This document shows positions 15,323-54,801 of a stretch of DNA of 64,000 nucleotides, in pieces (the stretch's first letter is position 1; the number at the start of each line of letters is the position of its first letter). Under the pieces are notes generated by a model. The model had not been told where the DNA came from and did no database searches. It worked only from the letters and a program-made list of their open reading frames with translations. The position numbers and the translations under genes are program-made. Source of the DNA: Candidatus Poribacteria bacterium (GTDB lineage: Bacteria; Poribacteria; WGA-4E; WGA-3G); contig OZ244616.1 in NCBI GenBank assembly GCA_965218285.1, positions 1,472,133 through 1,536,132 of the forward strand, in the 5' to 3' direction.

Positions 15323-15409
15323 AATATCGGATATCTCTGAAAGAATGGTTGTATCAATAAATTCGGTTCTATACCTTCCTAAATGTTTATACTGAATTAA
15401 TTCGTAGGT

Positions 15410-15505
15410 TATACCCAATTAACCCGATTTGTCTTATTTCCCGGCCAGTAGGTGCGGTTTCCTAACCGCACTTACCGATTGGAATCTCGTTAATTTGGTA
15501 TTATA
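15410..15505. mobile_element. MITE family C, about 96 bp, with TIRs TATACCCAATTAAC / GTTAATTTGGTATTATA and a central hairpin.
   Basis: TIRs at both ends. The central hairpin AGTAGGTGCGGTTTCCTAACCGCACTTACC is the same palindrome that is duplicated around the MITE-B copies at 8.5 and 59.3 kb. Other copies lie at 52753-52848 and, reverse-complemented, at 18595-18690. Confidence 0.65.
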
Positions 15506-18594: not shown

Positions 18595-18690
18595 GTAATA
18601 CCAAATTAACTTGATTCAAAGTTTTCTAATAGCGGTTAGCATTGCGAGGCACGGGGACCTCGCACTACAAATCCCGTTAATTGGGTATAA
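18595..18690. mobile_element. MITE family C copy, reverse orientation, with a different central hairpin (GCGAGGCACGGGGACCTCGC).
   Basis: Ends TAATACCAAATTAACTTGATTC ... CCGTTAATTGGGTATAAT are the reverse complement of the family C TIRs. Confidence 0.55.
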
Positions 18691-18699
18691 TGTCTTAAG

Positions 18700-52621: not shown

Positions 52622-52752
52622 AATTATAACTGCTCCTTCTGTTTGGACAAGCGTATATCTAATCAGATTAATTCAAGCAACCTTACATGACACGCTAATT
52701 TATTTTCTGGGTGCATGTCTTTTCGATTGACAATCGCAACTCTTTGCGTTAT

Positions 52753-52848
52753 TATACCCAATTAACCCGATTTGTAGTGTGAGGTCCCCGTGCCTCACAA
52801 TGCCGACTGTATCCGAAGACGTCGAATCAAGTTAATTTGGTATTATAC
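52753..52848. mobile_element. MITE family C copy, immediately upstream of the MazG-like gene.
   Basis: TTATACCCAATTAACCCGATTTGT ... GAATCAAGTTAATTTGGTATTATA with central hairpin TGTGAGGTCCCCGTGCCTCACA. Its right end supplies a TATTATA -10-like box 15 nt upstream of the MazG RBS. Confidence 0.6.
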
Positions 52849-52863
52849 AGGAAAAGGAGAATT

Positions 52864-53148
52864 ATGACAATTCAAAAATTTCAGGAACAGATTGAAGCTA
52901 TCTATTACACGCGGGATGCTGAACGTGGAGTGCCATTAACGTTCACATGGTTTGTTGAAGAGGTAGGGGAATTAGCCAAAGAGATTCGCAAACAACCGCA
53001 GGACATGGAACGTTTGCGTGAAGAATTCGCCGATGTTTTGGCATGGCTGTCTACATTAGCAAGTCTGCTTGATATTTCTCTTGAGGATGCAGCACAAATC
53101 TATGCAGAGGGGTGCCCGAAGTGCAACGCTATACCCTGCAGATGTTAA
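52864..53148 (+). CDS. Small MazG-like nucleoside triphosphate pyrophosphohydrolase with a C-terminal Cys cluster.
   Basis: MazG core TFTWFVEEVGELAKEIRK...EEFADVLAWLSTLASLL with the EExxE/D metal-binding pattern. C-terminal CPKCNAIPCRC. RBS AAAGGAGA lies 6 nt upstream. Confidence 0.65.
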   Translation: MTIQKFQEQIEAIYYTRDAERGVPLTFTWFVEEVGELAKEIRKQPQDMERLREEFADVLAWLSTLASLLDISLEDAAQIYAEGCPKCNAIPCRC

Positions 53149-53174: not shown

Positions 53175-54545
53175 TCATTCAGGGAGTGGACAGACACCCT
53201 CAAATTCAAGTAGCGCGGAATCTTCGTTTATATCATATTGAAAACGCTGCCCTTTAAATTTAACTTGTAATGCTGTTGGATTGAGTAGTTTCAAATCTAA
53301 TTGGAGTATATCTTCAACCGTGTTTGATAACTTCAAATATAGTACAGAAATTAAACGGGCGAACTTCTCAAATGTTTCTGGCGTTCTTTTGAAATGTTGG
53401 TAGAGTTCAGGGATAGGTGAAGTAAGGGCTTGGAGTCTATTTCCATATTGTGATGAGAGTTCACCCCGGATCTGAACCTCTAACAGCATCTGATCAAAGA
53501 CATTTGCTTGCATTAGGGATGAACTAACTGTTTCTAACTTTTCATCAAGGAGGAGACGTTTAGCACGCGTATTAGCAATCTGATCTAATGTAAGATATTC
53601 AAAATTAACTTTCTCTGTTTGATGCTTAAATGTCTTTCCTGTCGTGTCCTCAATGAGAATAAGTTTCCACACAGTCTCCTCTTCAGTCGAAATTTGTGTT
53701 ACCTCTCGCGGCTTTATCCATGCCGCATCTTCTTTATGTGCGAAAGCAAGTAGATCATGTTGATCTTTCCGCAATGAACATAGAAAAGCAGCATGTTCAG
53801 ATGAAGTAGGGGTAAGTGTTATAGAAATCTCCTTTGAATCCCACTGCACCTCTTGAAACGGAATGAAATAATGCTGTCCTTCTACTGAGCGAAATAAAAC
53901 GCAGTTATCGTTTTCCTTTTCTTTATTGCCTGCAGCGTTTACAGGTTCAGAAAATTCGGATGGTATAACGTCAAGAATCTTCTGAATACCAATATCCCAG
54001 TCCTCATGAAGATTAACATATTGAAGATCTTGTAGAGTTACACCCTCTCCAATATTAATATCAGGAATCTCACATTCGTTCAATTTTACAGGGATAAACC
54101 AAACCTTATCAACAGGTTTTTGTTGAAGTTTATCAATTGCGATTGACAGTTCTTCATTCATGTAAGTCTTGTCGCGAACGTTATATTCCTTTGAAAAACA
54201 TGCAATAAAGAAATCTCCGTGATGAATTGCTTGTTGAATCGCTTGTTTCCAGGGCGTTCCAGGGTTTAAATTATCCCAATCCACCCAAACAGTGACGTTA
54301 TTTGAGGTAAGGGCATTGCAAAGTTGGTCTACAGCAGCCTTGTTCTCATGGCAGTAGGAGATAAAGACATGCCGCATTTCTCTGGCGTGTTTAATCTCCA
54401 TGTTAACATGGTTGATTAAGCGTGCTCGGAAAACTTCACGACGTCTTTTATGTGCTTCGGGTCCTCGTCGGATTTGGGACGGATCGGGTGCGTTATCACG
54501 CGTATAGGCTTCATAGTCGAATTCAACTTCTTTTGTAGTATGCAT
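53175..54545 (-). CDS. TIR-domain protein of 456 aa: a short N-terminal segment, a TIR domain, then an about 250-aa uncharacterised C-terminal domain.
   Basis: TIR_2-type core RHVFISYCHENKAAVDQLCNALTSNNVTVWVDWDNLNPGTPWKQAIQQAIHHGDFFIACFSKEYNVRDKTYMNEELSIAIDKLQ. A conserved Glu sits in the NEEL helix. The start codon lies inside the 3' end of the upstream BrnT-like gene, a 23-nt overlap. Confidence 0.75.
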   Translation of the reverse strand: MHTTKEVEFDYEAYTRDNAPDPSQIRRGPEAHKRRREVFRARLINHVNMEIKHAREMRHVFISYCHENKAAVDQLCNALTSNNVTVWVDWDNLNPGTPWKQAIQQAIHHGDFFIACFSKEYNVRDKTYMNEELSIAIDKLQQKPVDKVWFIPVKLNECEIPDINIGEGVTLQDLQYVNLHEDWDIGIQKILDVIPSEFSEPVNAAGNKEKENDNCVLFRSVEGQHYFIPFQEVQWDSKEISITLTPTSSEHAAFLCSLRKDQHDLLAFAHKEDAAWIKPREVTQISTEEETVWKLILIEDTTGKTFKHQTEKVNFEYLTLDQIANTRAKRLLLDEKLETVSSSLMQANVFDQMLLEVQIRGELSSQYGNRLQALTSPIPELYQHFKRTPETFEKFARLISVLYLKLSNTVEDILQLDLKLLNPTALQVKFKGQRFQYDINEDSALLEFEGVCPLPE

Positions 54546-54801
54546 TTAGAATTTTTCCTTTAGCCTCATAAGCGGTAATTAAACGATGGAATTCTTCACC
54601 TTCCGCGATGTAAATAATTATTAAAACCCGATTAGTAACAGTTTTTCCTACATACATCCATTGATCTGGATGTCCTTGCGGATCTGGGGCATCGAATCCA
54701 TGGTGATCATCAAAAGCAGAAACAACTTCATAGAACTGGACGTTATGTTTACTTTGAACCTTCGCATACTTATCAGCATCCCATATAAATCCAATATCCA
54801 T
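54523..54801 (-). CDS. brnT: BrnT-like (DUF497) ribonuclease toxin family protein.
   Basis: FIWDADKYAKVQSKHNVQFYEVVSAFDD...NRVLIIIYIAEGEEFHRLITAYEAKGKILNAYYK follows the DUF497 pattern FxWDxxKxxxNxxKHxVxFxEAxxVF...RIISAR+A. Length is 92 aa. Confidence 0.65.
   Translation of the reverse strand: MDIGFIWDADKYAKVQSKHNVQFYEVVSAFDDHHGFDAPDPQGHPDQWMYVGKTVTNRVLIIIYIAEGEEFHRLITAYEAKGKILNAYYKRS

Follow-up and report, generated by a model that had tools for sequence, protein, structure and literature searches.

A probable brnTA-derived two-gene cassette of Poribacteria with a putative TIR defence protein in the antitoxin position

The window, a stretch of 64,000 nucleotides from Candidatus Poribacteria bacterium, carries two overlapping genes on its minus strand: brnT (54523..54801; 92 aa), the first gene of the cassette, and the gene of a 456-aa TIR-domain protein (53175..54545), the second. 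A MazG-like gene on the plus strand (52864..53148; 94 aa from its ATG) is a conserved backbone gene and delimits the cassette on that side; all three open reading frames lie where a sequence-only reading of this DNA had placed them. The junction at which translational coupling would occur (54523..54560, minus strand) comprises a Shine-Dalgarno sequence, AAGGA (54556–54560), located within brnT 10 nt 5′ of the ATG of the TIR gene (54545–54543), and a 23-nt overlap that ends with the brnT stop codon (54525–54523). As first described, brnT terminates inside the TIR gene; its end falls 20 nt past the ATG and not 18, a negligible discrepancy. A gene pair with identical overlap recurs in 27 species of the uncultured Poribacteria, so the arrangement is not a product of chance. 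In the 20 intact poribacterial loci the GGAG/AGGA motif, the ATG and the overlap of 23 nt are all conserved, which identifies the long start of the TIR protein, rather than an internal methionine, as the genuine one; the N-terminus that it adds evolves as coding sequence. A promoter scan of the interval between the 426-aa gene and brnT found no sigma-70-like site. The two cassette genes are probably translationally coupled.

BrnT matches the Pfam family BrnT_toxin (PF04365) with 46.2 bits over positions 1–74 of the 77-position model, above the curated cutoff of 34.5 bits, and the initial DUF497/BrnT assignment thus survives a profile search. The protein is also weakly similar to a toxin of known structure, 7vd7 (E 0.0015), and matches, with E 0.006, a PHROG family annotated as 'ribonuclease toxin of AT system'. 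The locus has the form of a toxin-first bicistron with an overlapping partner, and BrnT is predicted to be an RNase toxin of the RelE superfamily. Among 19 intact copies of brnT dN/dS is ~0.15, a rough value since dS exceeds 1.

The TIR domain of the partner protein (residues 59–195; 53961..54371, minus strand) has the profile and the fold of the TIR family, with TIR_2 (PF13676) scoring 90.5 bits (E 1.5e-25) over residues 60–191. E132, within the sequence YMNEEL, lies in the W-x-x-x-E-[LI] motif of the catalytic glutamate and is invariant in 19 family members; in alignments it coincides with the 'DEL' of Cat1 and falls within 1–2 residues of the 'YEL' of AbTIR. We take this position to be catalytic from what is established for SARM1 E642 and the plant TIRs, and the protein is likely to be an NAD-degrading defence protein.

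The C-terminal domain (CTD; residues 214–456; 53178..53906, minus strand), presumably a sensor or assembly module, gives no Pfam match across residues ~200–456, as had been noted from the sequence, and a sequence search of the PDB returned nothing for it. It is not the novel domain that it was first taken to be. The ~245-aa region belongs to a widespread, uncharacterised domain of 387 clusters that recurs attached to interchangeable effector domains, its partners elsewhere being TIR, SEFIR, PNP, caspase/CHAT, cyclase and deaminase domains. SEFIR is present in 25 of the 62 relatives sampled. A domain found behind so many abortive-infection effector domains deserves structural study.

The N-terminal segment of the TIR protein had been suspected of resembling BrnA, a suspicion that holds for residues 1–39 (54429..54545, minus strand; hereafter the N-module) and fails for the ribbon-helix-helix (RHH) domain, which has been replaced rather than retained. 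Residues 1–39 align with the N-terminus of a subfamily of BrnA (PF14384/DUF4415), in a profile of 59 members, with an hhalign probability of 99.2%, an E of 1e-19 and 51% identity, and the N-module matches a Moduliflexus BrnA by BLASTP (1e-12). Five residues, F9, D10, Y11, P20 and R35, vary little or not at all in either the TIR proteins or this BrnA subfamily. The homology ends exactly at the start of the BrnA RHH strand ('RIDEDIL'), and the TIR domain comes next. On this evidence residues 1–39 are the N-terminal, non-DNA-binding module of BrnA and, because the RHH is C-terminal in BrnA, presumably the part that contacts BrnT. The relationship is visible only through related loci and profile–profile comparison: the TIR protein gives no PF14384 match even at E<=10, the N-segment alone has no match in Pfam, PADLOC or NCBIfam, a homologue search that used the 57-aa N-segment as query recovered nothing beyond three truncated fragments, all poribacterial, and a PDB sequence search with BrnA gave nothing.

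Residues 40–58 (54372..54428, minus strand) link the N-module to the TIR domain in the place occupied by the RHH in BrnA; they are conserved across Poribacteria and have no counterpart in BrnA. An AlphaFold monomer model (AF2; alignment of 137 diverse sequences, pLDDT 85) contains a long helix at residues 29–56 with pLDDT 59–70, and the N-module reaches only 43–70. These low values fit an antitoxin that folds on binding its toxin, although they do not prove it.

Several known systems share parts of this organisation. The BrnT/BrnA pair of Brucella abortus is likewise a toxin-first operon with a BrnT above the Pfam threshold and a partner that overlaps the 3′ end of the toxin gene and shares the BrnA-type segment; canonical members of the BrnA subfamily lie 3′ of BrnT and overlap it in a similar way, by 20 nt in canonical brnTA loci. 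The partner in the window differs in that it lacks the RHH, is 456 aa long, carries a TIR domain and the CTD, and fails the Pfam BrnA model; as it has no RHH, autoregulation of the BrnA type would not be expected.

In architecture the TIR protein resembles bSEFIR, a single-protein anti-phage system (PADLOC PDLC03957) of which the Bacillus protein depletes NAD+, and which is defined by an N-terminal SEFIR domain scoring above TIR (Millman et al. 2022). Both proteins are of ~420–450 aa, with an N-terminal NADase-type domain of the TIR superfamily followed by a C-terminal domain of ~250 aa. They differ in that the window protein has TIR_2 and not SEFIR (Pfam gives TIR_2 and TIR only, with no SEFIR match), and in that its N-terminus is extended by 58 aa and it is paired with a toxin, making a system of two genes rather than one. 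The window protein matches the PADLOC bSEFIR model weakly (40 bits; residues 48–419 over model positions 25–362), and the CTD alone does not match it. That model is matched by 28 of the 62 sampled CTD relatives (best 2e-75), those bearing SEFIR aligning mostly at model positions 35–200 and only one (P0156) extending to 325. From this shared architecture we infer a defence role.

The TIR-APAZ proteins of SPARTA, which likewise have a C-terminal domain of comparable length behind TIR, are the top Foldseek matches in the PDB (E 1.8e-7; ~360–450 aligned columns); in PADLOC, the TIR region is matched best by the Aga_TIR models. A SPARTA-like system was nonetheless rejected, since the superposition is very poor and pAgo is absent, there being no short Argonaute open reading frame in the window neighbourhood or the syntenic loci.

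CapRel(SJ46) is a sensor-coupled, fused toxin–antitoxin defence protein, and RES-Xre and MbcTA are NAD-targeting toxin–antitoxin pairs. They are alike in concept, joining an antitoxin to a module that reads infection or bringing NAD+ destruction into toxin–antitoxin logic. Here, in contrast, the putative NADase effector and the antitoxin segment share one protein and the RNase toxin is a second one, so that either partner could be toxic; none of these systems is related to the cassette in sequence. Searches of the literature for a pairing of BrnT with TIR, for antitoxins combined with TIR domains and for defence in Poribacteria found no description of the arrangement.

The setting had been read as a small defence island, but the cassette occupies a fixed position between core genes and is inherited vertically. 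Across the 27 species BrnT is intact in 18 and inactivated in nine and the TIR gene is inactivated in three, counts that are not phylogenetically independent (the losses at L029 and L031 seem related). No species has an intact BrnT without the TIR gene, nor one without the N-module, whilst six have an intact TIR gene and no working BrnT. The N-module is still conserved in all six, and may therefore have another role or act on BrnT paralogues encoded at other sites. The divergence of BrnT tracks that of the N-module only (pairwise; Mantel rho 0.47, p 0.001), and the CTD co-descends with the flanks of the locus. At a further locus (L035) the same N-module lies behind BrnT fused to other conflict-type domains, the scaffold being either TPR with PD-(D/E)XK or TPR alone; its neighbours are a PtuA-like ATPase and a TIR-TPR protein. 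With its BrnT losses and empty sites, the 27-species series constitutes a ready comparative dataset on partner dependence.

The explanation that we favour, with moderate confidence, is a two-gene cassette derived from brnTA in which a TIR defence protein takes the place of the antitoxin. The C-terminal, DNA-binding RHH domain of BrnA would have been replaced by the TIR domain and the CTD, leaving brnT intact. The N-module would bind and neutralise BrnT, which would make the TIR protein its antitoxin; judged from sequence, the protein probably doubles as an antidote to the RNase toxin. Dependence would run one way, BrnT being an accessory of the TIR protein and not vice versa. A model in which BrnT restrains the TIR NADase was rejected as the main one, since the TIR gene is intact in six species that have no functional BrnT. 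The body of the protein would sense a phage cue through the CTD, assemble and hydrolyse NAD+. BrnT would be docked ~20 residues from the TIR domain, and it is for this reason possible, though we put it forward tentatively, that the toxin is set free when the TIR domains assemble or the protein is turned over, adding RNA cleavage to NAD+ depletion. Any such coupling is dispensable, as shown by the six species that lack a working BrnT but keep the TIR gene intact.

Toxin–antitoxin modules and TIR NADases are both established in anti-phage immunity and are usually treated separately; grafting the toxin-binding module of an antitoxin onto a TIR effector would bring two potentially lethal activities into a single complex. 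Should the link prove functional, it would provide a natural example in which immune protein and antitoxin are one and the same, and exchange of an antitoxin DNA-binding domain for a sensor-effector would offer a simple route to multi-effector immunity. A broader reading, which we consider doubtful, is that in Poribacteria the first 39 residues of BrnA are a portable docking tag tethering BrnT to different immune scaffolds, whose activation or destruction in the course of an infection gates release of the toxin. Were it true, it would point to a general 'sensor-as-antitoxin' design, with two-effector abortive infection through NAD+ loss and RNA cleavage, and to exchange of BrnT and tag alleles as a unit, independently of the scaffold.

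The alternative that survives best, rather unlikely in our estimation, is one of addiction or passage only: the N-module neutralises BrnT as in brnTA, there is no cross-talk with the TIR-CTD body, and BrnT is never released in immunity. The fusion would then make the defence gene hard to lose, or the toxin–antitoxin pair would simply hitch-hike at a fixed site. Occupation of one conserved site in 27 species, with a CTD that co-descends with the flanks, is unusually stable for a defence gene and agrees with this account, as does the repeated loss of BrnT with retention of TIR and never the reverse, the pattern of a toxin addicted to its antitoxin; moreover, TIR-CTD relatives elsewhere work without BrnT or the N-module. 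The purifying selection on intact BrnT is, however, unexpected for a purely selfish chromosomal toxin, and reuse of the N-module with other conflict-type domains at L035 suggests a purpose.

It is improbable, in our judgement, that the pair is a relic in which the N-module has lost its hold on BrnT and now works as an autoinhibitory or oligomerisation helix of the TIR protein, BrnT being a weak or inactive, decaying remnant. This account would accommodate the conservation of the N-module where BrnT has been lost, the defective BrnT of a third of the species, and the behaviour of G28, which is variable in the TIR proteins though invariant in BrnA. It sits poorly with the intact, constrained BrnT of the other 18 species, with the specific correlation between BrnT and N-module divergence, and with conservation of the overlap, the Shine-Dalgarno sequence and the residues shared with BrnA.

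We regard as very improbable a host-directed effector that, like Brucella BtpA/TcpB, disturbs TIR/MyD88 signalling, here that of a sponge, in the service of symbiosis. Poribacteria are sponge symbionts, animal MyD88 and Hydra TRR-2 are among the closest structural matches of the TIR domain, and the gene descends vertically, as a trait of the lineage would. Nevertheless, the CTD family is widespread and its effector partners are typical of intracellular conflict systems, the N-terminus is an apparent antitoxin module with no secretion signal recognisable in the sequence, and the catalytic glutamate motif of NADase TIRs is retained.

A three-gene defence islet, in which MazG (PF03819, E 2.8e-10) would act jointly with BrnT and the TIR protein, is scarcely credible: MazG is convergent with the TIR gene, only 26 nt from its stop codon, and adjoins the cassette in all 27 species, but it is 82–96% identical throughout these, also where the cassette has decayed, shows the constraint of a housekeeping gene (dN/dS 0.05, against 0.15 for BrnT, both rough), persists 13–26 nt from the 426-aa gene on two poribacterial contigs with neither BrnT nor TIR (the empty sites L068 and L069), has homologues in other metagenomes (45–63% identity) with no BrnT or TIR nearby, and is missing from the other loci with BrnT and the N-module (L035, L059, L060 and L064). 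The repeat beside MazG, first described as a MITE, is real; it spans 52751–52845 and has an inverted copy at 18596–18691 with 86% identity. Further fragments of it lie at 15409–15505.

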